Shown: positions 4,664-54,675 of the stretch, one piece after another
Layout: every line of letters starts with the position of its first letter
How positions within the stretch are numbered: position 1 is the first letter of the stretch
IMG/VR virus record: IMGVR_UViG_3300012642_000011
Coordinates: 96,001-160,000 of that record
Reading direction: 5' to 3' (one strand)
Length of the DNA: 64,000 nt
DNA from: a virus
The notes under the pieces: model-generated
The model's database searches: none
Told to the model about the DNA's origin: nothing
The model's input: the letters and a program-made list of their open reading frames with translations, nothing else
Translations under genes and position numbers: made by a program

Positions 4664-4680
4664 TTGATAGAAATTGGTAA

Positions 4681-4722
4681 GATCCTGTGAACATGGTCAA
4701 CTCATGTTCACAGGATCTTACT
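4681..4722 (+). terminator. rho-independent terminator-like hairpin after nrdF
   Basis: Inverted repeat aagatcctgtgaacatg...catgttcacaggatctt followed by acttttgct. Confidence 0.5.
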
Positions 4723-4745
4723 TTTGCTCAAGGAGACATTATAGA

Positions 4746-6407
4746 ATGAGAATCAGGAATACAGAGGACTTCATTCAAAGAGCAAAAAGTATTCATGGGG
4801 ACAGGTTTGACTACTCTCCAACGCAGTACACTAAACTCAAAGAAAAAGTGATCATCATCTGTCCTGATCATGGTGAATTCTCTACTTACCCTAACACACA
4901 TTTGGGAAGCAAAGGTGGTACAGGGTGCAAAGAATGCGCTATGGCAACAAGAAGAATGTCTCCTGAAGAGTATATTCAAAAGGCAAAAGAAATCCATGGG
5001 GATAAATTTGATTACTCCCAGACGAGATTTACCAAAATGGCTGACCAGATCACTGTTCTTTGCAGAGAACATGGCGAGTTCACCCAGAATGCTCAAAATC
5101 ATTTACGAGGAATGAACGGTTGCTCTGAATGCAATGGGCAAAGTGTGATCTCTGTACAAGAATATGTCACAAGAGCAAAAGAGAAACATGGAGATCGATT
5201 TGATTACTCCAAAGTGATGCAATTCAAGAACCTTCATGAGAAAATCACTGTCATCTGTAATGAGCACCGTGAATCCTATAGGATTGAAGCCAACTCTCAC
5301 TTAAGAGGAAACAACGGCTGTAGAAAATGTAATAAATATGCCCCATATGATACTGCCAAGTTTGACAACAAGATACAATCTCATGGATCTGGCAGGTATG
5401 ATTACTCCAAGGTTGACTTGAGTTCCTTCAATGTTAAAACATCTTCTCCTATCATCTGCACAATAGATGATCATGGCACATTCTATCAGTCCTTTGATGC
5501 TCACTTTGCTGGCAAGGAAGGGTGTCGTAAATGTGATGAAGCAGGGACATCTAAGCGGGAGAAGGAATTCATTGAATTCATTATGGATGTCTATGATGGC
5601 AGAATCATCACTAATGATAGGAAAGTTCTCAACGGAAAGGAACTTGACATCTATCTTCCAGAGATCAATGTAGCCATTGAATTTAATGGTATTTATTGGC
5701 ATCAGGAAAAATTCTCGGGGAAGAAAAAGCACTCTGAAAAATATTGGGCATGCCATGATCAAGGGATCAGATTGTTAACTGTGTGGGAGGATGATTGGAA
5801 TAATAAGAAAGAGATTGTCAAGAAGCATGTTCAGCATGTGATGGGAATTAATAATCAGAGAAGAATTTATGCAAGGAATACGAATGTCAGCATAGTGGAC
5901 AGGTGGGAAGCATCAGCATTCCATGAGAGTAATCACATTCAAGGATCAGTGAGTGCTTCTGAACATTGGGGTCTGAAAGACAAGGGATCAGGCGTTCTTG
6001 TAGCAATTGCATCCTTCAAGAAGGCAAAGAATGGTTACATATTGGAGAGGTATTCTACGTCTGAACATGTCATTGGTGGTCATTCTAAAATAGTCAAAGC
6101 ATTCATGAAAGAGCATCCGAATTCTATGCTAACGACGTTTGCTGATTTATCTTTTTCTGATGGTGGTTTGTATGAGAAAACAGGATGGATTCAGGATAAG
6201 ATATTGCCTCCTGATTATTACTACATCTTCAGGAATGAGAGGAAGCATAAGTTCGGTTTCAGGAAGAAGAGGTTTAAGAATGATCCTTCGCTTTTTTATG
6301 ATGAATCTTTAACTGAATCACAGTTGGCTCATATCAATGGGATTCAGAGAGTTTATGATTGTGGTAAGATACGTTTTACGTTTCCTTTTCATCAAGACAG
6401 ACCCTGA
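4746..6407 (+). CDS. homing-endonuclease-like protein: N-terminal tandem zinc-ribbon repeats plus Vsr/DUF559-like PD-(D/E)XK core (paralog 1 of 4)
   Basis: Four repeats of the HGD(R/K)FDYS...C..HGEF...H..G..GC..C module. Then ELDIYLPEINVAIEFNGIYWH...GIRLLTVWEDDW, and a C-terminal domain shared with 44348, 47917 and 52738. SD caaggag precedes the ATG at 4746. Inserted between nrdF and nrdE. Confidence 0.7.
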   Translation: MRIRNTEDFIQRAKSIHGDRFDYSPTQYTKLKEKVIIICPDHGEFSTYPNTHLGSKGGTGCKECAMATRRMSPEEYIQKAKEIHGDKFDYSQTRFTKMADQITVLCREHGEFTQNAQNHLRGMNGCSECNGQSVISVQEYVTRAKEKHGDRFDYSKVMQFKNLHEKITVICNEHRESYRIEANSHLRGNNGCRKCNKYAPYDTAKFDNKIQSHGSGRYDYSKVDLSSFNVKTSSPIICTIDDHGTFYQSFDAHFAGKEGCRKCDEAGTSKREKEFIEFIMDVYDGRIITNDRKVLNGKELDIYLPEINVAIEFNGIYWHQEKFSGKKKHSEKYWACHDQGIRLLTVWEDDWNNKKEIVKKHVQHVMGINNQRRIYARNTNVSIVDRWEASAFHESNHIQGSVSASEHWGLKDKGSGVLVAIASFKKAKNGYILERYSTSEHVIGGHSKIVKAFMKEHPNSMLTTFADLSFSDGGLYEKTGWIQDKILPPDYYYIFRNERKHKFGFRKKRFKNDPSLFYDESLTESQLAHINGIQRVYDCGKIRFTFPFHQDRP

Positions 6408-6717: not shown

Positions 6718-9700
6718 ATGTCTGAATTCAATGGAACAACCCACGACAAAGAAGAGAACGTGGATTACCATGAGTTGAACGCCCAGGTGAAACTGATGGG
6801 TGAAGATGGAAAACTTCAGTTGCATAAGGACAAAGAGGCAGCCAGAGCATTCTTCCTCCACCATGTCAATGAGAACACAGTGTTCTTCCACGATCTTGAA
6901 GAGAAACTGGATTACCTCTTCAAGAATGACTACTACGAGAAGGAACTCTTCGACAAGTATGACTTCGATTTCGTGAAGTCACTTTACAAGAAGGCATACG
7001 CTTACAAGTTCCGTTTCCCATCCTTCATGGGAGCATTCAAGTACTACACATCCTATACTCTGAAGACATTCGACGGCAAGAGATATCTTGAACGCTATGA
7101 GGATAGGGTTGTCGTTGTTGCTCTTTACCTTGCTGATGGTGACGAGGATGCTGCAGAGCACTTGCTTGATGAGATGATGGGCGGACGTTTCCAGCCTGCC
7201 ACTCCAACCTTCTTGAATGCAGGAAAGAAGCAGCGTGGTGAGATGGTGTCGTGTTTCGAAGGCGATACACCAATTTCTACACCCCATGGTGAAATTACAA
7301 TCTCCAACATTGTTGAGGGGGATTCAGTTTACACACACGATGGCAGCGTGCAAAAGGTAACAGGAGTTATGTCTCGTGAGGAAAGTGACGGAATAGTTTC
7401 TCTTACTGTTATTGGACAAAAAGAAAAGTTCTCTTCTACTAAAGAGCACCCTGTCCTTGTTTACAGAAAAAACTCATCTCAAGACACCTTAATTGATGGT
7501 GATGGAAGTACTGAGAATGTAAAGTGGATTGCAGCGGGAGAAGTTCTTCCTGGTGATTTCATTGCTCTGTCTGTTCCAAGAAGAAGTTCCGAATCTGTTT
7601 CAGAACTGAAGATTTCAGATTACGTTAAAACGCCATCTACATGGGGTAGGACTCTTGATGTTGATGTAGAAAACGATCTTGTTTACATTGGATCAATCGA
7701 CAAGAAAAACAATAAAAAGAAGGGGTCTAATGTTTTAAAGAACTCATATTCTTTGAAAAACACCATCTCTGTGAACGAAGATTTCGGACGACTTGTAGGA
7801 TACTACATTTCTGAGGGATATGCTCATTACACGAATGGGGTAAATAAGGGAATTCGATTCACTTTCGGATCAAAAGAAGATATCTTTATCAAGGATACCG
7901 TCAATCTGATTGAAAGAATCTTCGGCTTTACGCCTACTGTGAGAGAAAACGTAGATGGCTCAACGAATGTGGCTGCTTGGTCTCAAATTATGGGAGAATT
8001 CTTTGTTTCCCTTATCGGAACTGGATTTAATAAGAAGAGGTTGAACACTCTTCTACTTGATGCTTCTGATGAATTCCTCAAAGGTATGCTTGTAGGATGC
8101 TTCAGAGGGGATGGAACAGTCCTTGACAGAAGCGCAGAAGTCTCTTTGTCCAACCCTGAGATTATTTCTCAATTAAGAACTGCTGCTTTGAGGATTGGAC
8201 TTCTTCCGTATGAGAGAACCTTCTTCAGTGCTTCAGGGTCACCTACATCCACCTTGAAGATTCCTGCTATCAGCGAAAACAATGTTGACTTCATTAAATA
8301 CATTGATAAAAATGCAGATAGATTTGATGGTGTACTTGCCTCTGATCAGTTTAGATTTGCAAGGATCATTGATGGATACGTAATGTATAAAGTAAAGGCA
8401 TCTTCATTCGAAGAAAAAACTACTACTGTTTACAATCTTGAAGTAGAGAACAATCATACCTATGTAGCAAGAGGGTACATTGCTCACAACTGCTTCCTCT
8501 TGAGAACAGAAGACAACCTTGAATCCATTGCAAGAAACATTACCAACGCTTTGCAGTTGTCTAAGCGTGGTGGCGGTGTTGCTTTGAACCTCACCAACGT
8601 TCGTGAGCAGGGTGCTCCTATTAAGAACATTGAGGGACAGTCCTCTGGAATCATTCCTGTCATGAAACTTCTTGAGGATTCATTCTCCTATGCTAACCAG
8701 TTGGGAGCACGTCAGGGAGCAGGTGCAGTGTACTTGAACGCACACCACCCTGACATCATGAGATTCCTTGACACTAAGCGTGAGAACGCAGATGAGAAGA
8801 TCAGGATTAAGACACTTTCCATTGGTATTGTCATTCCTGACATCACTTTTGAACTTGCTAAGCGCAATGATGACATGTATCTGTTCTCACCTTATGATGT
8901 TGAGAAATTCTACGGTAAGCCTTTCAGTGACATCGATATCACGGAAGAGTACTACGATATGGTAGATAACCCCAAGATCCGTAAGCAAAAGATTAAAGCA
9001 CGTTCACTCTTCCAGACCATTGCTGAGCTACAGTTTGAGTCAGGATACCCCTACCTCATGTTTGAGGACAACGTAAACGCGCAGTCACAGTTGGATGGAA
9101 AGGTTACACATTCCAACCTCTGCGTCACAGCAGAGACACAGTTGCTTACAGATTCAGGAAACGTCCGTGCAGGAGACCTCTTTGAATCACAAAATTCCTT
9201 CAACGTCATCGTTGATGAGAGAGCACGTACTATGGATCTTGATGCAGACGGAGTAGCCAGTGTTACATCAACCAAGATGTTCAAGACAGCAGAGAATACT
9301 CCTGTGTTCAAAATGTCCACTATTGAGGGGTATGAGTTAAGAGCAACAGAGTACCATAAGATCTACGTGGAGCGTAAGGACGAGAATGATGATCCTATCC
9401 TTGTGAAGATCCCCTTGGGTGAGGTCAAGCCAGGTGACAAAGTTCTCATTCAACCATCAGAGGGTGCATACGGACACGTTCACAAGCCTGATCTTGCATT
9501 CATTGCAGGATTCATTGCAGGTGAGGGTTCTCTTGTAGAGGACAAGGACTCTAAGTACTCACCATCTGCAAGACTGACAATCAAGCCAAAGAATAAGTCA
9601 GAGATCAGCAAGATCAATAAGATCGTGGAGAACATCTTCTACAGTGATGATGCCATTGGTCTCGTTGATGAGTCCACACGTATTCCTACTTTCACTGAAA

Positions 9701-11298
9701 GCGAGAAGTACAATAAATGGACGCTTTCTTCTACAATCCTTGCGGAAATCCTTAAAAACAATGATTTCACTAAGGATAATAAGGAGATTGTCCCTGACTT
9801 CGTACTCAGAGGAGACAGGTCAACACAGGTTGGCTACCTTTCGGGTCTCTATCAGGCAGATGGTTGCATTACAGGAACATCAAAGTCTGCAACCATTGAA
9901 CTGACTTCCACAAATAGGGAACTTCTCCTTGAAGTTCAGAGGATGCTATTGAACATGAACGTGTTCACTAGGCTGTACCTCTCCCGCAAGGCAGGTAAGG
10001 ATACCCTTCCTGATAGCAAGGGCGGAGAGAAGGAGTATGATGTAGCAGAAGTGTGGAATCTGAAGGCATCTGCACAGGCTGAAGTCGTTGCTCTCTATGA
10101 ACTTCTGAACTGGACAGACAGGCAGCAGAAAGCATGGCAGGAAAAGTCATTGGTATGGGATAAGAACAGAACACCATACAGCACACACCGCTACAAGGCT
10201 GTTGTCAGAGACATTGTTCCTGACGGTGTAGAGGATGTATATGATGTCACTGTAGAAGATGGTCACTCCATTATCTTCAATGGCATTGTCACAGGAAACT
10301 GTTCTGAAATTCTTCAGGTCTCAACTCCGTCAACATTTAATGAAGATGGAAACTATGACCACGTTGGAAGAGACATCTCCTGTAACCTCGCCTCTCTCAA
10401 TGTTGCCAACATGTTTGATTCACCTGATTTTGGTCAGTCAGTGGAAACAGCAGTACGTGCGCTCACAGTAGTGTCAGAACTGTCCAACATCTCATCTGCT
10501 CCATCCATTGAGCGTGGAAACCAGTTGAGTCATGCTATTGGTCTGGGTGCAATGAACCTTCACGGATTCTTTGCACGTGAGCACATCTATTACGCATCTG
10601 AGGAAGCAGTAGACTTCACCAACTTGTACTTCATGTCAGTACGTTACTACGCTATGAAGGCATCCAACAAGATGGCAAAGGAGAAGGGAAAGACATTCTT
10701 CGAGTTTGAGAAGTCAAAGTATGCTACAGGTGAGTTCTTCGACATGTACACAAACGGTCAGTACTCAGAAGTCAAGACTGAGAAGGTCAAAGAACTTCTG
10801 AAGAAGACAAGTATGCATGTGCCTACTGCTGAAGACTGGAAGCAGTTGAAGGAAGATGTGATGAGAGATGGTCTATATAATGCGTACCTGATCGCTGTTG
10901 CGCCAACAGGAAGCATCAGTTACATTTCTTATTCTACTTCTTCTATCCATCCTGTTGCTCAGAACATTGAGGCAAGGAAGGAAGGAAAGATTGGTAGAGT
11001 CTTCTACCCACAGCCATACTTGAGTGAGGAAACTCTGCCTTACTACGCTGATGCATACAAGGTAGGAACTGAAGCCATCATTGATGTGTATGCTGCTGCT
11101 ACACCTCACATTGATCAGGGTGCTTCTTTGACTCTCTTTGTGACTGATGAGGCCACAACCAGAGATCTCAATAAGGCATACATTTATGCATGGAGGAAGG
11201 GTATCAAGACGATTTACTACGTCCGTGTACGTCCTTCCACACTTGCAGGAACAGAGGTTGAGGATGCAAACTCTTACTGTGAGTCATGTCAGGTCTGA
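6718..11298 (+). CDS. nrdE: ribonucleotide reductase class Ib large subunit (NrdE) carrying two inteins
   Basis: NrdE N-terminus. Conserved PTFLNAGKKQRGEMVS | intein | CFLLRTEDN and HSNL | intein | CSEILQV junctions. SD aaggagg upstream. Roughly 720-aa extein after excision. Confidence 0.92.
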   Translation: MSEFNGTTHDKEENVDYHELNAQVKLMGEDGKLQLHKDKEAARAFFLHHVNENTVFFHDLEEKLDYLFKNDYYEKELFDKYDFDFVKSLYKKAYAYKFRFPSFMGAFKYYTSYTLKTFDGKRYLERYEDRVVVVALYLADGDEDAAEHLLDEMMGGRFQPATPTFLNAGKKQRGEMVSCFEGDTPISTPHGEITISNIVEGDSVYTHDGSVQKVTGVMSREESDGIVSLTVIGQKEKFSSTKEHPVLVYRKNSSQDTLIDGDGSTENVKWIAAGEVLPGDFIALSVPRRSSESVSELKISDYVKTPSTWGRTLDVDVENDLVYIGSIDKKNNKKKGSNVLKNSYSLKNTISVNEDFGRLVGYYISEGYAHYTNGVNKGIRFTFGSKEDIFIKDTVNLIERIFGFTPTVRENVDGSTNVAAWSQIMGEFFVSLIGTGFNKKRLNTLLLDASDEFLKGMLVGCFRGDGTVLDRSAEVSLSNPEIISQLRTAALRIGLLPYERTFFSASGSPTSTLKIPAISENNVDFIKYIDKNADRFDGVLASDQFRFARIIDGYVMYKVKASSFEEKTTTVYNLEVENNHTYVARGYIAHNCFLLRTEDNLESIARNITNALQLSKRGGGVALNLTNVREQGAPIKNIEGQSSGIIPVMKLLEDSFSYANQLGARQGAGAVYLNAHHPDIMRFLDTKRENADEKIRIKTLSIGIVIPDITFELAKRNDDMYLFSPYDVEKFYGKPFSDIDITEEYYDMVDNPKIRKQKIKARSLFQTIAELQFESGYPYLMFEDNVNAQSQLDGKVTHSNLCVTAETQLLTDSGNVRAGDLFESQNSFNVIVDERARTMDLDADGVASVTSTKMFKTAENTPVFKMSTIEGYELRATEYHKIYVERKDENDDPILVKIPLGEVKPGDKVLIQPSEGAYGHVHKPDLAFIAGFIAGEGSLVEDKDSKYSPSARLTIKPKNKSEISKINKIVENIFYSDDAIGLVDESTRIPTFTESEKYNKWTLSSTILAEILKNNDFTKDNKEIVPDFVLRGDRSTQVGYLSGLYQADGCITGTSKSATIELTSTNRELLLEVQRMLLNMNVFTRLYLSRKAGKDTLPDSKGGEKEYDVAEVWNLKASAQAEVVALYELLNWTDRQQKAWQEKSLVWDKNRTPYSTHRYKAVVRDIVPDGVEDVYDVTVEDGHSIIFNGIVTGNCSEILQVSTPSTFNEDGNYDHVGRDISCNLASLNVANMFDSPDFGQSVETAVRALTVVSELSNISSAPSIERGNQLSHAIGLGAMNLHGFFAREHIYYASEEAVDFTNLYFMSVRYYAMKASNKMAKEKGKTFFEFEKSKYATGEFFDMYTNGQYSEVKTEKVKELLKKTSMHVPTAEDWKQLKEDVMRDGLYNAYLIAVAPTGSISYISYSTSSIHPVAQNIEARKEGKIGRVFYPQPYLSEETLPYYADAYKVGTEAIIDVYAAATPHIDQGASLTLFVTDEATTRDLNKAYIYAWRKGIKTIYYVRVRPSTLAGTEVEDANSYCESCQV
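7252..8490 (+). mobile_element. intein 1 in NrdE (413 aa, with LAGLIDADG homing endonuclease)
   Basis: Starts CFEGDTPI and ends YIAHN before extein CFLL. Internal LAGLIDADG-like motifs LVGYYISEGYA and LVGCFRGDGTV. Confidence 0.8.
9121..10299 (+). mobile_element. intein 2 in NrdE (393 aa, with LAGLIDADG homing endonuclease)
   Basis: Starts CVTAETQLLTDSG and ends IVTGN before extein CSEILQV. Motifs IAGFIAGEGSL and YLSGLYQADGCI. Confidence 0.75.
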
Positions 11299-11390: not shown

Positions 11391-11524
11391 CACAACTTCG
11401 CTTCTTTTGCAGAAATGATTTCCTAGTCCATGCTGGATCGGGGTTGATTGGCATCAATAGTTTAGATCGTGTGTGAGATTAGAGAATCATCATGTGTGTT
11501 CATCTGAAAACATGGGGAGGGATA

Positions 11525-12271
11525 ATGGTCAAGTATCACGTGAGCAGCAAAACTGGCGAGATGAACAGATGCAGGGCAGATAAGATTGAATGCCCCTTGG
11601 GTTCAGTACAGCATTTTGAGAACATGAAGGAGGCACATTCTTTTTCTGAGGAAGTTTTGGAGAGATCATTCTCTTCTGTGTCGTCCTTGTCTTCTACAAA
11701 TCATTCTTCTCTTGTATCAACATGGAGAAATTCTCTTTCTGATGATGAGAGGGATGCTTGGGAATCGTATGGTTCCTTTGAGCATGGTGAGATCAATGAT
11801 GCTTTGAGACGTGATGATGTGGGCAGTTTATCTGATGATCAAAGAAAAGTGATTGATAACATGGATAAAGCGTTGGCGAGGTGCCCTCGTAGAAAATCAA
11901 ATCATACTCTTTTTCGTGGGGTGAAGACAGCAAATTCCGATCTTCCTCGCAAGACTGACATGAATCCTGTAGAATGGGTGAAGAAGCATATCGGGGAGGC
12001 TGGTAACGAGGTTGTCTTCAATGAGTTCGTGTCTACTTCTACATCTGAAGACATATCTCATGAGTTCTCTGGTATGAATGCTCCTGATTATATCTCTGGT
12101 GTTCTGATGAAGATTGATACTACTCAATCAGCGAAGTGGAATGAGGATGGATCTTATGAGGAAGAGGTTACCCTTGCCAGAGGAACAAAGTTCAGGGTTA
12201 TCAGTGTTGATATGGATCACAAGGTAGAGGGATATTCAAGACCATTGATCCATCTCGAAGAGATCTCTTAA
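11525..12271 (+). CDS. putative mono-ADP-ribosyltransferase fused to the shared N-terminal His/Cys motif domain
   Basis: R-S-E type ART signature: HTLFRGV (Arg), FVSTSTSE (STS) and YEEEVTLARGTKFRVISV (ExE ARTT loop). N-terminus MVKYHVSSKTGEMNRCRADKIECP...HFENMKEAHSF matches the 7-member family motif. SD ggggaggg upstream. Confidence 0.6.
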   Translation: MVKYHVSSKTGEMNRCRADKIECPLGSVQHFENMKEAHSFSEEVLERSFSSVSSLSSTNHSSLVSTWRNSLSDDERDAWESYGSFEHGEINDALRRDDVGSLSDDQRKVIDNMDKALARCPRRKSNHTLFRGVKTANSDLPRKTDMNPVEWVKKHIGEAGNEVVFNEFVSTSTSEDISHEFSGMNAPDYISGVLMKIDTTQSAKWNEDGSYEEEVTLARGTKFRVISVDMDHKVEGYSRPLIHLEEIS

Positions 12272-12823: not shown

Positions 12824-14125
12824 GTGACAATCATGGCACAACGCACAAGCGCACCAAAAACCCTCACAGAAGAAGCCAGACTTGCCAAAAACAAGAGAAT
12901 CAAAGAAGCAGGAAAAGCAACTCGTGAACGCAGAAAAACCATGATTGTCAAAGTGTATGACCTAAAAATCGTACAATCTTCCATGAATAAACAGCAAAAA
13001 GAGGCTATTAAAAGTATTTTCCATGAGGCTAAATGGATTCGCAATGCTGCCCTTGCAGCAGAACGTTTTGATCTTGACTACATCAAAGAACTCAAAGGTG
13101 AAGTTGAGGTAAAAGTCCCCAACGGAGATACTGAGAAAAGAGCAATCAAACATCTTGGAAGCCAAATGCAGCAAAGCGTGATAACTCAATTGAGCAATGA
13201 TCGCAAATCATTATCTGCATTGAAGAAGAATGGTCGCAAGATTGGAAAACTAAAGTTTGTTCGCAATGTCGATTCTATCAATCTCAAACAATATGGCGTG
13301 ACTTATGATCTGATTCCTAATTCAAAAGGGATGATGACTAAAATCCGTGTTCAGAACATTCCCGGCAGATTACGTGTTCGCGGTTATGAGCAATTGTGTG
13401 CTGATAGTCTTGAGTTTGCGAATGCTAAATTAGTGTATCGTGCTGATGGTTATCATTTAGTAGTGACCACTTATCAGCCACGAGCAGTTAAGGTTGCACC
13501 TACGAATAAAATCGGTGTGGACATGGGTGTAAAGAATGCTTTAACTCTTGATAATGGTGAGGTTGTTAACGCGATTATTACTGGCAAACAGGAGAGGATG
13601 GCGAGATTGCAGAGAAAACTGTCTCGTCAGGTAAAGAACTCCAACAGTTATCGCAAGACTTTGGCTAAGATCAAGAGAGAGTATCAGAATACTGATCATT
13701 TGAAGAATGAGTTTGCTAATCAATTAGTAAGCAGGTTAACTAAGGATAGTGTAGTGTTCTTCCAAGATGAAATGTTAGTATCGTGGAAGAACAAGAATTC
13801 GAAAGCACGTGGTTCTAAGAAGATCCATCATGGTGTGCTTGGTCGTGTTAAAGCGCGCTTGAAAAATCATGAGAATGCGGTAATGCTGCCTAAGTGGGTG
13901 GCTACTACTGCGTGGTGTTCTCCTTGTGGTGTCTTGACGAAGCATGATGTTAATATGAGTGTTTTCTTGTGTTCTTCTTGTGGTTTTAGTGAGGATCGTG
14001 ATTCTCATGCTGCGAGGAATATGGTTATTCTTGGTGAAAGGTACTTGAGTTTGGTCACCTCTGGAACGGAGGGTTGTGCTGGTGGAGGGATTGTTAGACT
14101 TAAGAATGATCTGTATAAGGTCTGA
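12824..14125 (+). CDS. tnpB: TnpB (IS605 OrfB family RNA-guided nuclease)
   Basis: 433 aa. C-terminal zinc finger CSPCGV...CSSCGF and RuvC-like DRDSHAARN. SD aaggagg upstream. Confidence 0.85.
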   Translation: MTIMAQRTSAPKTLTEEARLAKNKRIKEAGKATRERRKTMIVKVYDLKIVQSSMNKQQKEAIKSIFHEAKWIRNAALAAERFDLDYIKELKGEVEVKVPNGDTEKRAIKHLGSQMQQSVITQLSNDRKSLSALKKNGRKIGKLKFVRNVDSINLKQYGVTYDLIPNSKGMMTKIRVQNIPGRLRVRGYEQLCADSLEFANAKLVYRADGYHLVVTTYQPRAVKVAPTNKIGVDMGVKNALTLDNGEVVNAIITGKQERMARLQRKLSRQVKNSNSYRKTLAKIKREYQNTDHLKNEFANQLVSRLTKDSVVFFQDEMLVSWKNKNSKARGSKKIHHGVLGRVKARLKNHENAVMLPKWVATTAWCSPCGVLTKHDVNMSVFLCSSCGFSEDRDSHAARNMVILGERYLSLVTSGTEGCAGGGIVRLKNDLYKV

Positions 14126-28350: not shown

Positions 28351-28716
28351 TTAGTATATTCCTCAGCAAGCGATTCCTTAACAAGAAAGAAGAACAACGT
28401 GGCATCTGTACCATCTGAAATCAACAAGGAAGAATCTCACAAAAATCATAACGACGCTTTCACCACAGGCGCGTCTGCATTCTCTGTTGCTATGACTTTT
28501 GTTCCTCTTATTGGACTCCTTTGTAGTATAGGAACGTTCTTCCTATCCAGAAGGCGAGAGAACGCAATAGGCGTCACGCTTTCCATTGTCGCCTTTGTCT
28601 ATAACCTTGTCTTCACATCGATCCTTATCATTGGATACATTCTTACCGATGCTGTAATTCAGCAAATTGCACCAGGATCAAGCATCTCTGATCTTCTAAA
28701 CTCCTTTGCTACTTGA
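28339..28716 (+). CDS. possible small membrane protein (start uncertain)
   Basis: ORF overlaps the upstream terminator. Hydrophobic helices in the C-terminal half. Confidence 0.25.
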   Translation: MAFLLVYSSASDSLTRKKNNVASVPSEINKEESHKNHNDAFTTGASAFSVAMTFVPLIGLLCSIGTFFLSRRRENAIGVTLSIVAFVYNLVFTSILIIGYILTDAVIQQIAPGSSISDLLNSFAT

Positions 28717-28834
28717 TGCAAAAAGTCAAGCATCAGCACACTGTAACGCTAAACACATCATGTTAAGTTTTCGCATGATTGCCGGGATAATCATTCGTCG
28801 GCAACATGATTTCAAAACTTCTCTACTATCGAGT

Positions 28835-29171: not shown

Positions 29172-29276
29172 ATGTTTAAGAAGCATGAGAACAAGTTTAA
29201 GAATATTCTGCTTGACCTTCGGGATCTTGATTATCTCGATTTTAAGCGAGATATCCTGAATAACCTTCATCACTGA
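29172..29276 (+). CDS. small peptide (34 aa) downstream of the triple promoter
   Basis: AAAGGAGG SD 6 nt before the ATG. MFKKHENKFKNILLDLRDLDYLDFKRDILNNLHH. Confidence 0.4.
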   Translation: MFKKHENKFKNILLDLRDLDYLDFKRDILNNLHH

Positions 29277-29891
29277 TTAGGTGAACTTCCGCCAAATCAT
29301 TGCGAAGGGCGAGATAAGAATAGAAGCAAAAGAATCCAAACACATACACAAATGAATACTTGTCTTGACAGATGCAGACTGGACGTGATAACGTTGATAA
29401 CAGTCACAGCAACATATGTCTTATTGAGGACTTGCCAGAGTAGCAACGAGATGAGATCCAACATATGAAGCACATCATGGACTTGACAAACAAAAATTCA
29501 TGGTGTAGAGTGGTTGGTAACAATTTAAAAATGAGGACGGGGCTAGGCAATCCCGAGGAAGAACGACCCTGAGCAGATCTGGGCTTACCGTAGATAGGGA
29601 AACCAGTGATTGTCATCAGATTATTCACTTCAGAATAATTCTGGACAATAAGAAATAATTATGTTTCAAAGCATGGTGATTTCTTTGAATCATGTAGGCA
29701 TACATGATTTCCATCATCAGATGGTTGTCATAAGCACGTGTACAAGGTGCGAGATGAGGATCGCCGTTGAAACGGAATATAAGAATTACAATGTTGAATC
29801 CTCTCATCACGCATGCAATTGGTGGCAATGAGAACAAGGGTTCTGCATTTCCTTCTCAAGAGTCACCATTTCAGCATACTCTTGAGAATAT

Positions 29892-30207: not shown

Positions 30208-30384
30208 CAAAGAATGGCCGAAAACTGGTTCGAAACGGTATGCGGCGTCTTTAAGATCATGGTGTACAACATTGTCTTGAAGGTTTCTTTATTGTTCTTC
30301 TATGGTGTAAATGGAAAGCAAGCGTTCGTAGGAAAGGTGTAGGTTCGAATCCTGCTGGTAGAACAATAAAGACATTCTTTTTAT

Positions 30385-30580: not shown

Positions 30581-30729
30581 CAAAGGTGGTTCGCAGTGAC
30601 ACCCTGTATGCGTAGGAACTGCGTTGGCCTCCATATACCCTCTGGCTACGAACCAGTAGAAAGGTTAATGGATACATGCAGGTTCGAGTCCTGCTGGGGG
30701 CACGAAAGAGATCAATAATCTCTTATCAT

Positions 30730-30908: not shown

Positions 30909-30989
30909 TTGCCACCATGAGGCTAGTCATGGCGTCTTTTGATGCAAGACGGTCCCGAGGAAACAGGGTGTCTGCTGTAACGCATCATA

Positions 30990-31062
30990 TGCCTCTTTAC
31001 TCCAATGGTAGAGAGAATCGGTTCAGATCCGATACAGTCTGGGTTCGACTCCCAGAAGAGGC
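30990..31062 (+). tRNA. class-I tRNA with anticodon CAG (reads CUG; Leu-decoding anticodon on a short-variable-arm scaffold)
   Basis: Acceptor gcctctt/aagaggc (perfect), 8-9 ta, D-arm ctcc/agag, anticodon stem atcgg/ccgat, loop ttCAGat, variable acagt, T-arm ctggg-ttcgact-cccag, discriminator A. Confidence 0.65.
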
Positions 31063-31236
31063 ACGCATGGACAAAAAGAAACGTTTGTCTCTGTATTTGT
31101 TGACACTTGATGCCAACACCAAGTTAGCGGGAGTGGTCCGTGGGATCACTCCGATGGTTCCATGTGACCTTCCACATGGCATCTTACGAAGACGAGATGA
31201 TCGCGGGGAAGCAGGTTGTTCTTGTAACGTCTTCAT

Positions 31237-31308
31237 GCCTCTCTATTCCAATGTAGAGAAACACGGCTAAGAACCGTGACAGTCTGGGTTCGACTCCCAG
31301 GAGAGGCA
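31237..31308 (+). tRNA. class-I tRNA with anticodon AAG (reads CUU; paralog of the CAG tRNA)
   Basis: Acceptor gcctctc/gagaggc (perfect), anticodon stem cacgg/ccgtg, loop ctAAGaa, variable acagt. T-arm identical to the CAG tRNA. Discriminator A. Confidence 0.65.
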
Positions 31309-31380
31309 CGGAAACATCAGTATGCCATGCTTCTACTATTGATAATATGCGTACAGTACTTTAAATCAAAGGAGCATATT

Positions 31381-31703: not shown

Positions 31704-32026
31704 CGATCTTGGTCAATCCAAGATTTGACTGACCATCACAAAAGTTTCTTTATCATTGCGGATTATCTACCCGCCAAAGAGAAAAGAAACAGAAATGTTG
31801 GATCAGATCAAGGAATAGTTATCTCAATTCTTGGATCTTCACCTGAAGAGATGAGAGATAAGAATACTGTGAGAACAAGCCGTTCTCATAGCATGGTGTG
31901 TGAGATGGATGCTGGTTAGCCATGTCAGGTTGTGACCCTGATGACGAATGTCTGCGCGGGTTCAATCCCCGTCACGCACCCGAGGAGCACTTTCACGTGT
32001 TCGAAGCATACATTAGTATGCTTATG

Positions 32027-32176: not shown

Positions 32177-32376
32177 GATAGAGCGAATGGGTCGCTACCG
32201 GACGCTTGAAAAATCTATTTAGATTTTTTGTTGGGAATCCCCAACGGTGGAAGAAACAAATGATTGACCATAATGGGTTCGATTCCCTACTGGGCGAGAG
32301 ATCGCCTGGCGTCAGGTGGTGACTTATGGTGAGACTCACTTCTCTCTTTCTTCACTGCGCTTCAAGCGCTTTCATG

Positions 32377-32462
32377 CTCGATTGGTGGAATGCAGGTAGA
32401 CACGCTGGCTTGAGGGGTCAGTTCACGTAAGTGAATACGGGTTCGAGTCCCGTATCGAGCAC
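32377..32462 (+). tRNA. tRNA-Leu (GAG), class II
   Basis: Acceptor gctcgat/atcgagc. D-arm gtgg...acac. Anticodon stem ctggc/gtcag, loop ttGAGgg. Long variable arm ttcacgtaagtgaat. T-arm acggg-ttcgagt-cccgt. Confidence 0.8.
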
Positions 32463-32547: not shown

Positions 32548-32630
32548 GCCGGATTGGTGGAATTGGTAGACACGCTGGTTTTAGGTACCAGTGCCCATAA
32601 GGTGTAAGGGTTCGAGTCCCTTATCCGGCA
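32548..32630 (+). tRNA. tRNA-Leu (TAG), class II
   Basis: Acceptor gccggat/atccggc. Anticodon stem ctggt/accag, loop ttTAGgt. Long variable arm. T-arm aaggg-ttcgagt-ccctt. Confidence 0.8.
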
Positions 32631-33828: not shown

Positions 33829-33914
33829 GCCCTTGTGGTGGAATTGGAAGACACGCAAGACTAAGGATCTTGTTTCTGTAAAAGGAAGTGCGAGTTCAAG
33901 TCTCGCCAAGGGCA
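33829..33914 (+). tRNA. tRNA-Leu (AAG), class II, A at wobble position 34
   Basis: Acceptor gcccttg/caagggc (perfect). D-arm gtgg aattggaag acac (Leu-type). Anticodon stem caaga/tcttg, loop ctAAGga. Long variable arm tttctgtaaaaggaagt. T-arm gcgag-ttcaagt-ctcgc. Confidence 0.7.
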
Positions 33915-34522: not shown

Positions 34523-34826
34523 GGACGTTGTATTTTCTTCGATAGTCACTGACTAACGAAAAAAGAATTCGGAAAAATGGTCTATAGTATTAATGGCAAA
34601 ATACTCACTCTTTAGTGGGAGATCGCGGTTCGAATCCGCGTAGACCTTCGATTAATAATAACGTGAACACTGATACCATGAATTCTTATATTTCATCAAA
34701 CTATAGCGGGGACACAATTATATTATTTATGCGCCATCTTCACCCAAAGCCCCCATCTCTGATATCACGCCGTGGATTATTATGCTAATTGTTATTCCAT
34801 TTGCATCTTAATTTAGAGAAGTCAGA

Positions 34827-41836: not shown

Positions 41837-41908
41837 GCTTCTGTAGGTTAACGGTAAACCAGATGACTCTAAATCATTGACATGCGGGTTCGACTCCCGT
41901 CAGAAGCA
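41837..41908 (+). tRNA. tRNA with anticodon CTA (amber/UAG suppressor candidate)
   Basis: Acceptor gcttctg/cagaagc (perfect). D-arm ggtt-aacggta-aacc. Anticodon stem gatga/tcatt, loop ctCTAaa (U33, A37). T-arm gcggg-ttcgact-cccgt. Discriminator A. Confidence 0.65.
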
Positions 41909-43746: not shown

Positions 43747-44148
43747 ACACTTAATTGTGATCAAGGAAAAATACTAACGCATAAGATTGCAAAGGCACTT
43801 TCAAAGAGGATTCATATTTTAATCATATGCAAGTGTCAGTAGGGAAAGAAGTCTCATCATCTTCCCCTACACCTTACAGGAATAACTCAATGGTAGAGTG
43901 CTCAGAGTTCTGTCCACGAAGGTTCGATTCCTTCTGAAGCCAAGGTGGCATGGTTAACAGGTAACGTTCAAAAGAAGACTCATGAGAAGATGAAGGTTCA
44001 AATCCTTCTTCCTGTACACAACAAAGATCACATGATCATGCTTGAAGATCGCATAATAGTGACAATCAGCACATTGAGTAGACAAGAAGCAATAACTTTG
44101 ATATAGTAACCTATAGCAAGACCACAAAGGCATCTTCAGATTCCTTCT

Positions 44149-44347: not shown

Positions 44348-45838
44348 ATGAATTTCTTAGAAGCACATCCAGAAGTTTCATCATCATGGTCTGAAAATAA
44401 TGCATTCTCTCCTGACTCAATCTCCAAAGCATCAAGGAAAAAAGTCATCATCATCTGTGATAAACATGGTGACTATGAAATCAGGGCAGATTCTTACCAC
44501 AATGGCAACAGATGCAAACAATGTGCAGCAGAAGTCAAAGCACAGAGCAAGATCACGAAAGCAATTGCTCAACATGGAAGCGGTCTAGAAAAGTACCCCT
44601 CGCTAAAAAAGTATGCAGTAAGAGATTTCCACGCTAAAGATGATCACAAGATACCATTCCGCTGTCCCGATTGCGCACACGAATGGACGCTATCGCCCTA
44701 TAGTCAAATGATTATCAACGGCTGCCCACAATGTGACCCACAGGCAAAGATAAGAATGAAGAATCACATTCCTACTATGAAGTCTTTGACACATGGAAAC
44801 ATAGCAGACCAGAAACCAGAGATAGTTGCACAATGGTCGCCAAAAAATGATCTAACAACAGAACAAGTCAGTTGCGGTTCTGGTTATCGCGCTACATGGA
44901 TATGTGAGATCAATCCGAACCATGAATGGGAATCCTTTGTTTACCAGAGAGCAGGAAAGAAGGAAACAGGATGCCCACAATGCAATATATCTGGAATAGA
45001 ATCAGAAATTGGTCAACTCCTATCCGATCACCATGTTGACTTCATTCGTTCCAATCGAAAAATTATTGCACCCTATGAACTGGACATATACATTCCAGAG
45101 AAAAATGTAGCCATAGAAGCCAATGGTGTCTATTGGCATACAGAAAAACAAGGAAAAGATAGGAACTATCACTACAACAAGTGGAAACAATGCCATGATC
45201 AAGGAATCCAACTGATCACCATCTGGGAAGATGACTGGATGATGAAAAAAGAACTCATTAAAAAGATGATTCTTCACAAGATTGGACTATCCCATCAGAA
45301 AAGTATCTACGCACGTACATGTTCAGTCAAAGATGTTCCCACTATAGAATCCAATAGATTCTTGAATACTTACCATATTCAAGGAGAAGCAAGAGGAAGT
45401 GTGAAGATTGGACTTCACCATGAAGGAGAACTGGTTGCTATCTCCGTATGGAAGAAACTTAAAGAAGATGAATGGGAATTATCTCGCTATGCAACAAGCA
45501 TGAACGTTGTTGGTGGAGCAAGCAAAGTCATCAAAGCATTCATTCGTCAACACTCGCCAAGCAAGATTGTCACATTCGCTGACCATGAAGTATCTGATGG
45601 TGGACTATATGAAAAATTAGGGTTCACTGCCGACAAGGAGATCAAGCCTGATTACAAGTATGTTATAGACAACAAAAGAATACACAAGTTTAATTATAGA
45701 TTGAAGAGGTTCAAGAGCGATCCCACACTCATCTACGAAGAAGGATTGAGTGAATCACAGTTGGCTCAACTGAATAACATTGATAGAGCATGGGATTGCG
45801 GTAAAACACGATATATTCTGCAGTTACCCTTGATTTGA
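44348..45838 (+). CDS. homing-endonuclease-like protein (paralog 2 of 4)
   Basis: Zinc-ribbon repeats (C..C ... C..C) plus ELDIYIPEKNVAIEANGVYWH...GIQLITIWEDDW and the shared C-terminal domain (IVTFADHEVSDGGLYEKLGF...HKFNYRLKRFK...WDCGKTRY). Confidence 0.7.
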   Translation: MNFLEAHPEVSSSWSENNAFSPDSISKASRKKVIIICDKHGDYEIRADSYHNGNRCKQCAAEVKAQSKITKAIAQHGSGLEKYPSLKKYAVRDFHAKDDHKIPFRCPDCAHEWTLSPYSQMIINGCPQCDPQAKIRMKNHIPTMKSLTHGNIADQKPEIVAQWSPKNDLTTEQVSCGSGYRATWICEINPNHEWESFVYQRAGKKETGCPQCNISGIESEIGQLLSDHHVDFIRSNRKIIAPYELDIYIPEKNVAIEANGVYWHTEKQGKDRNYHYNKWKQCHDQGIQLITIWEDDWMMKKELIKKMILHKIGLSHQKSIYARTCSVKDVPTIESNRFLNTYHIQGEARGSVKIGLHHEGELVAISVWKKLKEDEWELSRYATSMNVVGGASKVIKAFIRQHSPSKIVTFADHEVSDGGLYEKLGFTADKEIKPDYKYVIDNKRIHKFNYRLKRFKSDPTLIYEEGLSESQLAQLNNIDRAWDCGKTRYILQLPLI

Positions 45839-47791: not shown

Positions 47792-47830
47792 AAATAGACC
47801 AGTAAATTACTGGTCTATTTTTGTTTTTGA
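47792..47830 (+). terminator. strong terminator
   Basis: aaatagaccagtaaattactggtctattt followed by ttgtttttg. Confidence 0.7.
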
Positions 47831-47916
47831 TGGTCGTTTTTATCTTACTTCTCACCATACTTGTATACTTCTCCCAAATGGTGTGCTCTAAGCATAGATC
47901 TTGTTATCATATATGT

Positions 47917-49665
47917 ATGAAGCCCCAACTGTATGAGTATTTTTTAGATCATCCCGAAATGAAAGCAATGTGGTCACGTCGCAATAGTGACGAACTGTTG
48001 TCTAAAACGGCTGGAAGCAATGTGAAGGCACTATGGTCTTGCTCTACTTGTGGGCAAGAATCATTAATCCCTATTTACCGCAAGGTCAACAATCCTCTTA
48101 CATGTTCTACATGCAATGGGAGCAAGGTGGTTCAAGGGGTGAATGATTTGGAAACAATGTATCCCGAAATAGCGTCTGAATGGTCGTCGAGGAATGAGAA
48201 GAAACCTTCAGAAGTAAAATATAGTTCTGCAATCACTGCTGAATGGGATTGTAAAAATGGGCACTCTTTTACTATGTATCTTCCTGAAAGGACGAGATCG
48301 ACCAGGAAATCTCGGGGGTGCCCTGAGTGTAGAAGACAAGAAATCCAGGAAGACAAAGAGAATAACCCTAATAAGCGCTCTATTGCATCGGGAAATGGAT
48401 CAGCGGAGATGCAGCAGATGTTTGTGGAATCATTAGGAAAGATCAAATTTCCAGGAGCGAGGTCAGGCACACTTTGCTTATGGAGATGCTCGAAGGGGCA
48501 TGAATGGAGGCAAGTTCCTAAGAGATTTAATGGATGTGAAATCTGCGATCCGCCCCAGTATATTCTACCGCAGTCCAGGAACAAAAACATTTTAAAGGTA
48601 TCCAATTCGATCCTCCACACTCATCCTCATGCTATAGAATTATGGAATGATTCAAGAAGTCCAGAATCAGTAACTAAAGGATCATCCTATCGCGCTCAAT
48701 GGAAGTGTGCTAAAAACCATCAATGGGAACAATCTGTCTACACAGTGCTCCGGTCCCTCGACAAAGGTCACAAAGCATGCCCTCATTGCTCTTCCATGAT
48801 TTCTGCTGCTGAAAAGAAAATCTCTGAGATTGTAAAGGAGGCAATGAATCCATTGGGTTTAACTGTCCTCACTTCCCATCGTAAATTGATTCCTCCCTAT
48901 GAAGTAGACATTTATGTTCCTGAGAAGAAGATTGCTATTGAATACAATGGTCTCTACTGGCATAGTGATGCTAATCGAAAGGGTAAAGACAGGAATTATC
49001 ACTACAACAAGTGGAAGAAATGCAAAGATCAAGGTGTCCAATTGATCACCGTGTGGGAGGATGATTGGCGTGACCATGAGGACATTGTGACATCAATGTT
49101 GTTGACCAAGTTGGGTGTTTCTGATGCTCAGAAAGTCAATGCTCGTGATTGTGTGATCGTAGAATCTTCTTATACCGATTCTTCTGCATTTCTTGATGCT
49201 CACCATATTCAAGGTTCAGCAAGAGGGAGTTTCTATCTTTCCTTATTGCATGATGGTGTCATGGTGGCAACTTCGGTGTGGGTGAAGAGGGGGTCAGACC
49301 TTGTTCTTGAGCGCTACGCAACCTCTGTGAGCGTTCGTGGTGGCATGGGTAAACTGTTGAAGGCTGGGTGCATAGAAGGCCGTCAGAGGGGCGCACAGCG
49401 CGTTGTGACTTTTGCTGATCATGGTGTTTCTGATGGTGGATTGTATGAGCGCCTTGGTTTCGTTGCTGACAAGGTGTTGAAGCCTGATTATGCGTATGTT
49501 GTAGATGGTGATAGGAAGCATAAGTTCAATTACAGGTTGAAGAGGTTCAAGAATGATCCAGTATTGAGATATGTGGACGGTTTATCTGAATCCCAGTTGG
49601 CTGAGTTGAATGAGATTCCTCGTGTATGGGATTGTGGGAAGACGCGGTATGTGATGGGTCTTTGA
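47917..49665 (+). CDS. homing-endonuclease-like protein (paralog 3 of 4; the 47821 start is unlikely because it overlaps the terminator)
   Basis: Zinc-ribbon repeats, then KLIPPYEVDIYVPEKKIAIEYNGLYWHSD...GVQLITVWEDDW, then the shared C-terminal domain. Confidence 0.65.
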   Translation: MKPQLYEYFLDHPEMKAMWSRRNSDELLSKTAGSNVKALWSCSTCGQESLIPIYRKVNNPLTCSTCNGSKVVQGVNDLETMYPEIASEWSSRNEKKPSEVKYSSAITAEWDCKNGHSFTMYLPERTRSTRKSRGCPECRRQEIQEDKENNPNKRSIASGNGSAEMQQMFVESLGKIKFPGARSGTLCLWRCSKGHEWRQVPKRFNGCEICDPPQYILPQSRNKNILKVSNSILHTHPHAIELWNDSRSPESVTKGSSYRAQWKCAKNHQWEQSVYTVLRSLDKGHKACPHCSSMISAAEKKISEIVKEAMNPLGLTVLTSHRKLIPPYEVDIYVPEKKIAIEYNGLYWHSDANRKGKDRNYHYNKWKKCKDQGVQLITVWEDDWRDHEDIVTSMLLTKLGVSDAQKVNARDCVIVESSYTDSSAFLDAHHIQGSARGSFYLSLLHDGVMVATSVWVKRGSDLVLERYATSVSVRGGMGKLLKAGCIEGRQRGAQRVVTFADHGVSDGGLYERLGFVADKVLKPDYAYVVDGDRKHKFNYRLKRFKNDPVLRYVDGLSESQLAELNEIPRVWDCGKTRYVMGL

Positions 49666-52737: not shown

Positions 52738-54675
52738 ATGAAACTCTGTGATAAGTATCCCCAGCTTAAAAATAAGTATTCACAACTTAATAATACTATT
52801 TTTGAGGAAAAAGAGTATCGATACGATGAGTATCTTTTTTGGGATTGTCCTCAAGGGCATCATATTTATAAGCCTGCTAGAGAAATCAATAGATATCAAA
52901 ATTGCAATTCCTGTGAAAACATCAAAAAGACTGGGATTGAGTTCTTTGAAAGCTTGGAATACCTCTATCCCTCTATCGTAGAAAAATATAGTGTCAAAAA
53001 TATTCTTTCTGCAAACAGTGTTCGACCAGACTCACTTTTTAATGCAATCTGGGAAGATCGAGATGAGAAAATAAAAATATACGATAGGGTTCTGGAAGAA
53101 ATATCTTCAGGAAATGTGAAAAGAAATCATGTAACGAAGAGAAACGTAAAAAATAGAAAAAAGAAAGACAATGTTTCTGCGGAAAGTATATCCAAGCCGC
53201 AAGAAAAAGAGGATTCACCTCTTTTAAAAGATGCCTACCCAGACCTTTATGAAATGCGATTAAACGATTGTGAAGATCTTAATATTTGGTCTAATAAAAA
53301 ACTTTTGTGGAAGTGCGACAAAGGGCATGAGTTCACTTCAAGTATACGAAACCTCATTAAAAGATCAACTAAGTGCAATGTCTGTAGTGGAGTTGCCTTG
53401 CAAAAGGGAGTCAATGATATTTCGACCCTGGCTCCTGACCTTGCCTCATGCATTGTATCTCCTGACCCTTCAGAAATTACATTAGCATATAATAAACCTA
53501 TCACTTTTAAATGTTTCACTTGCATGCATCAGTGGGTTTCAAATTTGGATAAAAGAAAAGACAGATCTTTAAGATGTCCTGGATGCAGCGGAAAAACTGT
53601 AATTCATGGATTCAATGACATTGAAACTATTATGCCGCACATCAAAAATTCATGGGCAAAGAATAATAAATACATGCCTTCTGAAATGACAACAAAAAGC
53701 GAAAAAGAAGTATACCTTTATTGTTCGAATGGAATATCGCATGATCTGGTTAAGACTTATGCATATGTAATTTCTCGAACACCTAATAGGAGAACTTATT
53801 TATGTAATCACTGTTCTGGATCTGCTGGTGAAATCGATATGGCAAATTTCATTGCTTCGCTCGGATTTACCACAATCAGAAAAGACAGGAAAATTATAAG
53901 GCCAAAAGAACTGGATGTATATCTTCCTGATCTCAAGGTGGCTTTTGAATACAATGGTCTCTATTGGCATTCAGATAAGGCAGGCAAATCCGACACCTAC
54001 CATTACGACAAGTGGAAGCGCTGTGCTGACAAGGGTATCCAGTTGATCTCTATCTGGGAGGATGATTGGAACTATCGTGAGGACATTGTCAAGAGGATGA
54101 TTGCTCACAAGTTGGGCGTCAGCAATGATCGCAAAGTCTACGCTCGGCAAACCGATGTCGTCATTGTAGACAAGGATGATGCCCGAGCGTTCTGCAATGC
54201 CCACCACATTCAAGGCTATGTATCTGGTAGCGTCTACTATGGTCTCAAAGATCGCAGGACGGATTCTTTGGTGGCTGTGAGCGTCTGGAAGCGTTCAGGT
54301 GACCAATTGCGCCTTGAGAGGTATTGCACGTCTGAGAACGTGATTGGTGGCATGGGAAAGATGTTGAAAGCGGGAGTCCAGTATGCCAAGGACAATGGGT
54401 TGAGCAAGATCGTCACTTTCTCTGATCATGATGTCTCTGATGGTGGACTGTATCGAAGACTTGGATTCATTCCTGACAAGGAGTTGAAGCCTGATTACAA
54501 GTATATCGTCGGCGGTACCAGGGTTCATAAATTCAACTATCGCATCAAGAGGTTCAGGGATGATCCGAACTTGAAGTATGCTGATGGTCTCACTGAATCC
54601 GAGTTGGCGCAGTTGAACAGTCTTCCTCGTGTTTACGATGCCGGCAAGACGCGTTGGGCGATCAATGTATCCTAA
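52738..54675 (+). CDS. homing-endonuclease-like protein (paralog 4 of 4)
   Basis: Zinc-ribbon repeats, then KELDVYLPDLKVAFEYNGLYWHSD...GIQLISIWEDDW, then the shared C-terminal domain. Confidence 0.7.
   Translation: MKLCDKYPQLKNKYSQLNNTIFEEKEYRYDEYLFWDCPQGHHIYKPAREINRYQNCNSCENIKKTGIEFFESLEYLYPSIVEKYSVKNILSANSVRPDSLFNAIWEDRDEKIKIYDRVLEEISSGNVKRNHVTKRNVKNRKKKDNVSAESISKPQEKEDSPLLKDAYPDLYEMRLNDCEDLNIWSNKKLLWKCDKGHEFTSSIRNLIKRSTKCNVCSGVALQKGVNDISTLAPDLASCIVSPDPSEITLAYNKPITFKCFTCMHQWVSNLDKRKDRSLRCPGCSGKTVIHGFNDIETIMPHIKNSWAKNNKYMPSEMTTKSEKEVYLYCSNGISHDLVKTYAYVISRTPNRRTYLCNHCSGSAGEIDMANFIASLGFTTIRKDRKIIRPKELDVYLPDLKVAFEYNGLYWHSDKAGKSDTYHYDKWKRCADKGIQLISIWEDDWNYREDIVKRMIAHKLGVSNDRKVYARQTDVVIVDKDDARAFCNAHHIQGYVSGSVYYGLKDRRTDSLVAVSVWKRSGDQLRLERYCTSENVIGGMGKMLKAGVQYAKDNGLSKIVTFSDHDVSDGGLYRRLGFIPDKELKPDYKYIVGGTRVHKFNYRIKRFRDDPNLKYADGLTESELAQLNSLPRVYDAGKTRWAINVS

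Follow-up and report, generated by a model that had tools for sequence, protein, structure and literature searches.

The window, by which we mean the whole 64,000-nt stretch of viral DNA analysed here, carries two neighbouring tRNA genes with the leucine anticodons CAG and AAG and a variable loop of 5 nt, against the more than 10 nt of a class II arm. Judged from sequence, both are very probably type I tRNA-Leu isoacceptors, predicted to be charged with leucine and to decode leucine codons. The pair is new; the kind, type I tRNA-Leu, is already described and is common in phages and actinobacteria. These odd-looking genes would be ordinary leucine decoders on a rare scaffold, and ordinary leucine decoding makes codon reassignment or deliberate miscoding needless.

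Position and fold of the two genes

ARAGORN called both genes on the plus strand (tRNA-Leu(cag) at 30991-31064, tRNA-Leu(aag) at 31237-31309), and both gave full-length matches to the Rfam tRNA covariance model, with E values of 9e-11 and 3e-9 respectively (Table 1). The AAG copy was absent from the list of a whole-window Rfam run with default filters and stood well over the gathering threshold in a permissive run. The anticodon was placed identically by ARAGORN, the Rfam model and the family model R1 (see below), in a 7-nt loop with U33. A preliminary description had named two tRNA genes about 250 nt apart with these anticodons, anticodon loops UUCAGAU and CUAAGAA, variable loop ACAGU and A73. 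ARAGORN and Rfam agree on the genes, the covariance-model check puts the anticodon where it had been read, loops and discriminator are as noted, and the distance comes to 246 nt from start to start with a spacer of 173 nt.

The CAG copy has the acceptor strands GCCUCUU/AAGAGGC, U8 A9 and A73. Its D arm, in the Rfam alignment, consists of a 3-bp stem CUC/GAG (C10-G25, U11-A24, C12-G23) and a C13·A22 mismatch, and its D loop is AAUGGUAGA, the Rfam alignment giving the 8-nt loop AAUGGUAG. The anticodon arm AUCGG-UUCAGAU-CCGAU, the variable loop ACAGU and the T arm CUGGG-UUCGACU-CCCAG complete the molecule; C74 is encoded, CCA is not. A14, A15-U48, G18G19, A20a, U54-A58 and A73 are all present in this gene, the sole tRNA of the window with a CAG anticodon. 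The AAG copy has the same architecture, with D stem UUC/GAA, anticodon arm CACGG-CUAAGAA-CCGUG, variable loop ACAGU and A73, but its D loop AAUG-UAGA holds a single G: one of G18G19 is gone, whereas the CAG copy has both.

Thus both copies combine a 3-bp D stem, C13·A22, U8, A14 and A15-U48 with a short variable loop. The D-arm design is of the class II kind in both, with a loop as in bacterial tRNA-Leu (GAAUUGGUAGA in the class II copies of the window). U8, A14, A15-U48, the 3-bp D stem with C13·A22 and a AAUGGUAGA-type D loop are the marks of type I tRNA-Leu. A 117-aa ORF overlaps both tRNA genes; some public assemblies annotate it as a gene of 113 aa (L003, 6103-6444). No Pfam hit is recorded for it, and the call is most likely spurious.

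Table 1. Positions of the two genes and of other features in the window and in related megaphages
Feature	Position	Strand	Basis or remark
Predicted type I tRNA-Leu(CAG)	30991..31063	+	ARAGORN; Rfam tRNA, 54.5 bits; R1, 81.8 bits; anticodon-masked HMMs
Predicted type I tRNA-Leu(AAG), paralogue of the CAG copy	31237..31308	+	ARAGORN; Rfam, 48.9 bits; R1, 75.8 bits; comparison with L140
Spacer between CAG and AAG copies	31064..31236	+	No gene supported
ORF overlapping both genes	30917-31270		Most likely spurious
Class II tRNA-Leu(GAG)	32376..32461	+	ARAGORN, Rfam
Class II tRNA-Leu(UAG)	32548..32630	+	ARAGORN, Rfam
Class II tRNA-Leu(AAG), anticodon as type I copy at 31237	33829..33914	+	ARAGORN, Rfam
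Sup-CUA tRNA	41837-41908		T loop TTCGACT, 4-bp D stem
tRNA-like sequences with good T arms	30296-30363; 30627-30702; 32229-32297; 43879-43942; 43957-44016		R1, 13.8-29.9 bits
86-nt 'tRNA-His' with long insertion	31896-31981		R1, 8.2 bits
tRNA with undefined two-base anticodon call	34578-34649		
Ribonucleotide reductase large subunit	6718-11298		1526 aa
HNH or homing endonucleases	4674-6407; 44348-45838; 47821-49665; 52738-54675		
TnpB	12824-14125		
ADP-ribosyltransferase	11492-12271		
tRNA genes with A34	Window 31237-31308, 33829-33914; L140 16342, 17362; L142 14881, 16896; L143 17798, 19321		Megaphage clade

Assignment to the type I tRNA-Leu family

To examine membership we took 53 type I tRNA-Leu of cellular and metagenomic origin, none of them from the window, masked their anticodons and built from them the covariance model R1, which was run with filters off. 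Over the whole window R1 ranked the CAG copy first and the AAG copy second; the best other tRNAs were Asn (59.2 bits) and Sup-CUA (57.8 bits). Members in related megaphages and cultured phages scored between 68.7 and 88.7 bits, the best non-member reached 63.9 and reverse-strand readings were weak (12-13 bits). The body of the family was found in both genes: U8 A9, the 3-bp D stem, pyrimidine13·A22, A26, the variable loop NCAGU and A73. The D loop of the family, AAYGGYAGA, appears with G18G19 in the CAG copy and with a single G in the AAG copy.

Isotype HMMs, anticodon-masked and loop-free, gave the same answer with margins smaller than those of R1: short Leu scored 34.9 bits on the CAG copy against 22.8 for the best other isotype, and 27.1 against 22.1 on the AAG copy. 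The viral short-Leu profile also gives high scores to the class II Leu-AAG and Leu-UAG of the window. Descent from class II tRNA-Leu by plain loss of the arm finds no support, as a sequence-only class II profile with arm removed and anticodon masked ranks neither gene high.

The identity of E. coli tRNA-Leu resides in A73, A14, A15-U48, G18G19 and A20a, not in the long arm (PMC9976931). The leucine identity set reported for E. coli and Aquifex, the long arm being dispensable, matches the features of the CAG copy (PMC9976931, PMC2377443). Alone, A15-U48 with A73 is unspecific: for most of the other isotypes, 5-37% of the tRNAs in phage arrays have it too.

Mistranslating tRNAs carry the body of one isotype under the anticodon of another, as do tRNAProX and the nematode nev-tRNAs. 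The two genes do not belong to this kind: short Leu exceeds the best non-Leu profile on both copies, and their identity set is that of leucine.

Distribution of type I tRNA-Leu in phages and bacteria

A first scan of IMG/VR used an anticodon-free pattern in which nothing was fixed but the D and T loops, spaced as in type I. It returned many short tRNAs with leucine anticodons and A73, and the matched contigs also hold short tRNA-Leu outside the pattern. Leucine anticodons were present in all 119 tRNAs called in the anticodon-free scan of metagenome contigs (UAA 61, CAA 33, UAG 18, GAG 6, CAG 1) and, among the matches listed from bacterial genomes taken one per species, in 121 of 123. The genome matches listed are mostly single-tRNA loci on Actinomycetota chromosomes, and the type I body occurs in at least 120 bacterial genomes, mostly of that phylum. 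The body is thus tied to both leucine codon boxes and to almost nothing else, as expected of a LeuRS that is blind to the anticodon. Type I tRNA-Leu has been described as a Streptomyces rarity; here it extends to these genomes and to many phage arrays, those of E. coli and Salmonella phages included.

An alignment of 54 viral type I tRNA-Leu had 97.8% of its cells paired, and compensatory change was seen in 19 of 20 pairs, all three D-stem pairs among them. U8, A73 and one G of G18G19 are invariant in it; A14, A15, U48 and the other G are each conserved to at least 90%, the AAG copy of the window being the sole sequence gapped at that G. Half of the 54 sequences (27) carry a G1·U72 wobble atop the acceptor stem; the window pair has G1-C72. 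A separate, near-identical 73-nt tRNA (TGCTGCTTAGTTCAATGGTAGAACGTCCGCCCAAATCGG...) recurs on 38 viral contigs (L020, L022, L030 and about 35 further IMG/VR loci); ARAGORN calls it Leu(caa), although its D stem is 4 bp long and its anticodon stem poor.

Phage arrays often contain type I tRNA-Leu beside class II copies, and phages are known to use tRNAs against tRNA-targeting defences; such defence-evading tRNAs differ from those of the host in the anticodon loop, at positions that nucleases recognize (PMC10264068). The two tRNAs might be leucylated as we propose, but have kept the armless design to escape defences or toxins that grip the long class II arm, serving as a defence-resistant spare tRNA-Leu. 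We regard this as rather unlikely: the design is native to actinobacterial chromosomes, where it is apparently essential, so that acquisition from hosts suffices to explain the phage copies, and the toxin MenT3 favours tRNA-Ser over tRNA-Leu.

Divergence of the two copies

The paralogues differ at 11 bases and one deletion. Eight of these differences form four compensatory pairs (7:66, 10:25, 27:43 and 28:42), the other three lie in the anticodon loop (positions 32, 34 and 38), and none breaks a stem. Four compensatory pairs with no disrupted stem argue, from sequence comparison, that both copies are maintained as folded tRNAs. The common acceptor and D arms of the preliminary description therefore hold as architecture and not as identity: 7:66 and 10:25 differ, both compensated, and the AAG copy lacks one G of its D loop.

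Megaphages with a helicase 52-54% identical to that of the window carry tRNA arrays at the same position, again with type I tRNA-Leu (UAG in L140; UAA and CAA in L143). The UAG copy of L140 (15810-15883) is a near twin of the AAG copy: its D arm reads UA-UUC-CAACGGCAGA-GAA-A, its anticodon loop CUUAGAA and its variable loop ACAGU, with GG intact. The AAG anticodon is one substitution from UAG. Considering the UAG copy and the UAA/CAA pair of these relatives, the window pair looks like the product of a duplication followed by anticodon change. A 97%-identical relative (L139) is represented by a contig that stops just short of the tRNA array, and a close orthologue with sequence differences did not come to light.

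An alternative, improbable though not negligible, is that only the CAG copy works and the AAG copy is a weak or decaying duplicate that derives from a UAG tRNA by mutation of U34 to A34 and has a damaged elbow. The missing G, the L140 homologue with its UAG anticodon and intact GG, the lower scores of the AAG copy with both Rfam and R1, and the class II tRNA-Leu(AAG), which already supplies the same anticodon, would fit such a decay; moreover, AAG was found on none of about 300 other type I tRNA-Leu retrieved. Against it, all 20 stem pairs of the AAG copy are intact, with four compensatory double changes relative to the CAG copy, and R1 places it 16 bits over any non-Leu tRNA of the window. 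Deletion of G18/G19 spares leucylation in the type I tRNA-Leu of S. coelicolor, and the functional bldA tRNA has no G19 (PMC6614811). Finally, A34 tRNAs (Leu-AAG, Pro-AGG, Thr-AGT) recur across the phage clade to which the AAG copy belongs. We thus retain the reading of both copies as probable leucine isoacceptors.

A34 anticodons of the megaphage clade comprise Leu-AAG, Pro-AGG, Thr-AGU and Arg-ACG (loci in Table 1), and this recurrence hints at expanded A34/inosine decoding. The window loop CUAAGAA differs at position 35 alone from what we take to be the loop of tRNA-Arg(ACG)-type tRNAs.

Meaning of CTG and CTT in the phage genes

In 40 long ORFs of the phage, CTT was the commonest leucine codon (30%) and CTG made up 10%. 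We then asked which residues stand opposite these codons in two phage proteins, aligned with 116 and 104 homologues of less than 80% identity. Leucine occupied 63% of the homologous positions at CTG (16 columns) and 53% at CTT (29 columns), compared with 63% at CTC (25 columns) and 68% at TTG (29 columns). By this comparison CTG and CTT in the phage genes appear intended to mean leucine, and a tRNA inserting another residue there would harm the phage itself.

The preliminary description had allowed that the tRNAs might carry another amino acid and so miscode CUN codons, with codon usage as a check; CTT being the most used leucine codon, usage lends this no support. That both tRNAs take a non-leucine amino acid and miscode CUG and CUU, be it as host sabotage or phage recoding, might be suggested by a class I scaffold under leucine anticodons, an acceptor stem GCCUCUU shared with the tRNA-Thr(UGU) of the window and a suppressor tRNA in the same array, but it is most improbable for a body that carries UUR and CUN leucine anticodons and almost nothing else (a distribution that fits an anticodon-blind LeuRS, not an anticodon-reading synthetase), that fits no other isotype profile, that has a validated member charged with leucine (PMC6614811), and whose codons CTG and CTT align with leucine, CTT among them being so heavily used by the phage. 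Its other suggestion, leucine decoding on a non-canonical scaffold, is supported as to the decoding; the scaffold is the known type I tRNA-Leu and not a new one. Its premise that bacterial tRNA-Leu is class II proved too strong, as type I tRNA-Leu is known in S. coelicolor (PMC6614811) and widespread in Actinomycetota and phages.

The tRNA array and its phage

The window has 42% G+C and holds 38 tRNA genes, all on the plus strand (29892-58988). The class II Leu tRNAs reported earlier were recovered with the anticodons GAG, TAG and AAG, 1.1-2.6 kb downstream of the pair, with variable arms of 14-17 nt. A likeness of the Sup-CUA tRNA to the pair had also been noted; the T loop TTCGACT is indeed common to them and nothing further, Sup-CUA having a 4-bp D stem and its lower R1 score. 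TAG terminates 1 of 40 long ORFs, TGA 30 and TAA 9.

Further features of the array deserve mention. C74 is encoded after the discriminator in 38 of 38 window tRNAs and the full CCA in only three; this may point to a rule by which the phage or its host processes tRNAs or completes CCA. Five tRNA-like sequences missed by ARAGORN (Table 1) could be degenerate or unusual tRNAs. The 86-nt 'tRNA-His' is not among the Rfam matches over the gathering threshold. About 3.2 kb beyond the end of the window (L384, 13874-13950) lies a tRNA-like sequence with an 8-nt anticodon loop, for which ARAGORN gives the four-base anticodon 'caag'.

The genes around the array encode helicases, several homing endonucleases, TnpB, PASTA, G5 and NucS proteins and a ribonucleotide reductase interrupted by intein-like insertions. 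The insertions in the large subunit of the reductase are intein- or endonuclease-like, and the tRNA clusters alternate with four large genes for HNH or homing endonucleases; TnpB and an ADP-ribosyltransferase are also present (Table 1). Several metagenome assemblies contain this sequence, on contigs that reach 332 kb, or 437 kb in the case of the cluster of a 904-aa protein, and helicase homologues lie on contigs of up to 828 kb. The contigs of 332-437 kb are ERZ27289831 k141_11150 and JGI 3300012313. Six public contigs include the tRNA region, and they are 100% identical across it, without population-level variation.

The source is a megaphage without a close GenBank relative. Searches of GenBank phages with the region and the tRNA by megablast and blastn gave generic tRNA matches or none, and these phages had no detectable nucleotide match to the two genes. 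The exact 22-mer of T arm and variable loop was found in IMG/VR only on an unrelated high-GC contig (L001), and a stricter D-arm pattern gave zero matches. The VWA protein had zero relatives in IMG/VR. Around the homologues of the 904-aa protein (L012-L017) tRNAs are absent, and synteny is thus not conserved at these loci. As to the host, the PASTA, G5 and NucS genes and the actinophage matches of the tRNAs point weakly to a Gram-positive bacterium or an actinobacterium.

Proposed function

We propose that the pair would be transcribed within the plus-strand tRNA array of the phage and processed, with the rest of CCA added to the encoded C74. Charging of both with leucine would fall to a LeuRS able to use armless tRNA-Leu, probably that of the host; a search of the window ORFs for LeuRS, TadA and further tRNA enzymes found none. 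CUG would be decoded by the CAG tRNA. The AAG tRNA would decode CUU, the commonest leucine codon of the phage, and, should its A34 be deaminated to inosine, CUC and CUA as well. E. coli LeuRS rejects the type I tRNA-Leu of S. coelicolor, so the function of the pair would depend on the host.

More speculatively, and with little confidence, phages, this megaphage clade and Felix-O1-like coliphages among them, may keep armless tRNA-Leu because it stays chargeable yet goes unseen by defences or toxins recognizing the long arm, or it may follow an unexpected charging route in hosts whose LeuRS, as in E. coli, rejects the type I tRNA-Leu of S. coelicolor, and the AAG copy with the Pro-AGG and Thr-AGT of the relatives could mark expanded A34-to-inosine decoding. 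The wide distribution of the design raises the question of which LeuRS take armless tRNA-Leu, and why phages carry such tRNAs beside class II copies.

Comparison with known systems

The nearest characterized system is the type I tRNA-Leu(CAA) of S. coelicolor, with the variable loop A44C45A46G47C48, which is leucylated by the single LeuRS of that organism (Fan et al. 2019, NAR, PMC6614811). Attempts to delete its gene failed, and it is apparently essential; 5 nt is the shortest variable loop for efficient leucylation, a ΔG18/ΔG19 mutant retains 113% catalytic efficiency, and bldA tRNA is naturally without G19 (PMC6614811). E. coli LeuRS fails to charge this tRNA, and S. coelicolor LeuRS fails to charge human mitochondrial tRNA-Leu (PMC6614811). 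Like it, the window genes have a leucine anticodon, a variable loop of 5 nt (ACAGU, against ACAGC in S. coelicolor), U8-A14 and A73, and coexist with class II tRNA-Leu in the same system. Unlike it, they stand in a phage tRNA array and not on a chromosome, read the CUN box with CAG and AAG instead of CAA, and have U at position 48 instead of C, and one copy has a single D-loop G. A 2023 review has the long arm in tRNA-Leu everywhere but in animal mitochondria (PMC9976931). In Mycobacterium tuberculosis, long loops occur only in tRNA-Leu-2, -3 and -5 (PMC11541572), and with the S. coelicolor report this makes the scaffold an already known one.

Our literature searches brought up no paper that deals with type I tRNA-Leu in phages. 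Cultured phages carry the same architecture inside tRNA arrays: Escherichia phage wV8 and other Felix-O1-like phages, Streptomyces phages of the group of Genie2 and Yaboi, Rhodococcus phage Trina and others. Their copies are annotated as tRNA-Leu in GenBank and score 68.7-83.6 bits with R1; the wV8 example reads GCACCUA-UA-GCC-CAACUGGUAGA-GGC...UCAGU...A73. They differ from the window genes in having UAG, CAA or UAA anticodons and, in many, an encoded CCA. The genome of wV8 (L137) holds two type I tRNA-Leu, UAG and CAA, both with CCA (28645-28721 and 29223-29300). Such coliphage copies raise a charging puzzle, given that E. coli LeuRS rejects the type I tRNA-Leu of S. coelicolor.

With class II tRNA-Leu the window genes have in common A73, A14, A15-U48, G18G19 in the CAG copy, A20a, a D stem of 3 bp, a 13·22 mismatch and leucine anticodons; they differ in a variable region of 5 nt, as against an arm of 14-17 nt, and in U8 A9 with C13, where U8 G9 with G13 is usual. 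Animal mitochondrial tRNA-Leu shares with them the short variable region and the determinants A14 and A73 (PMC9976931), but has degenerate elbows and a dedicated LeuRS.
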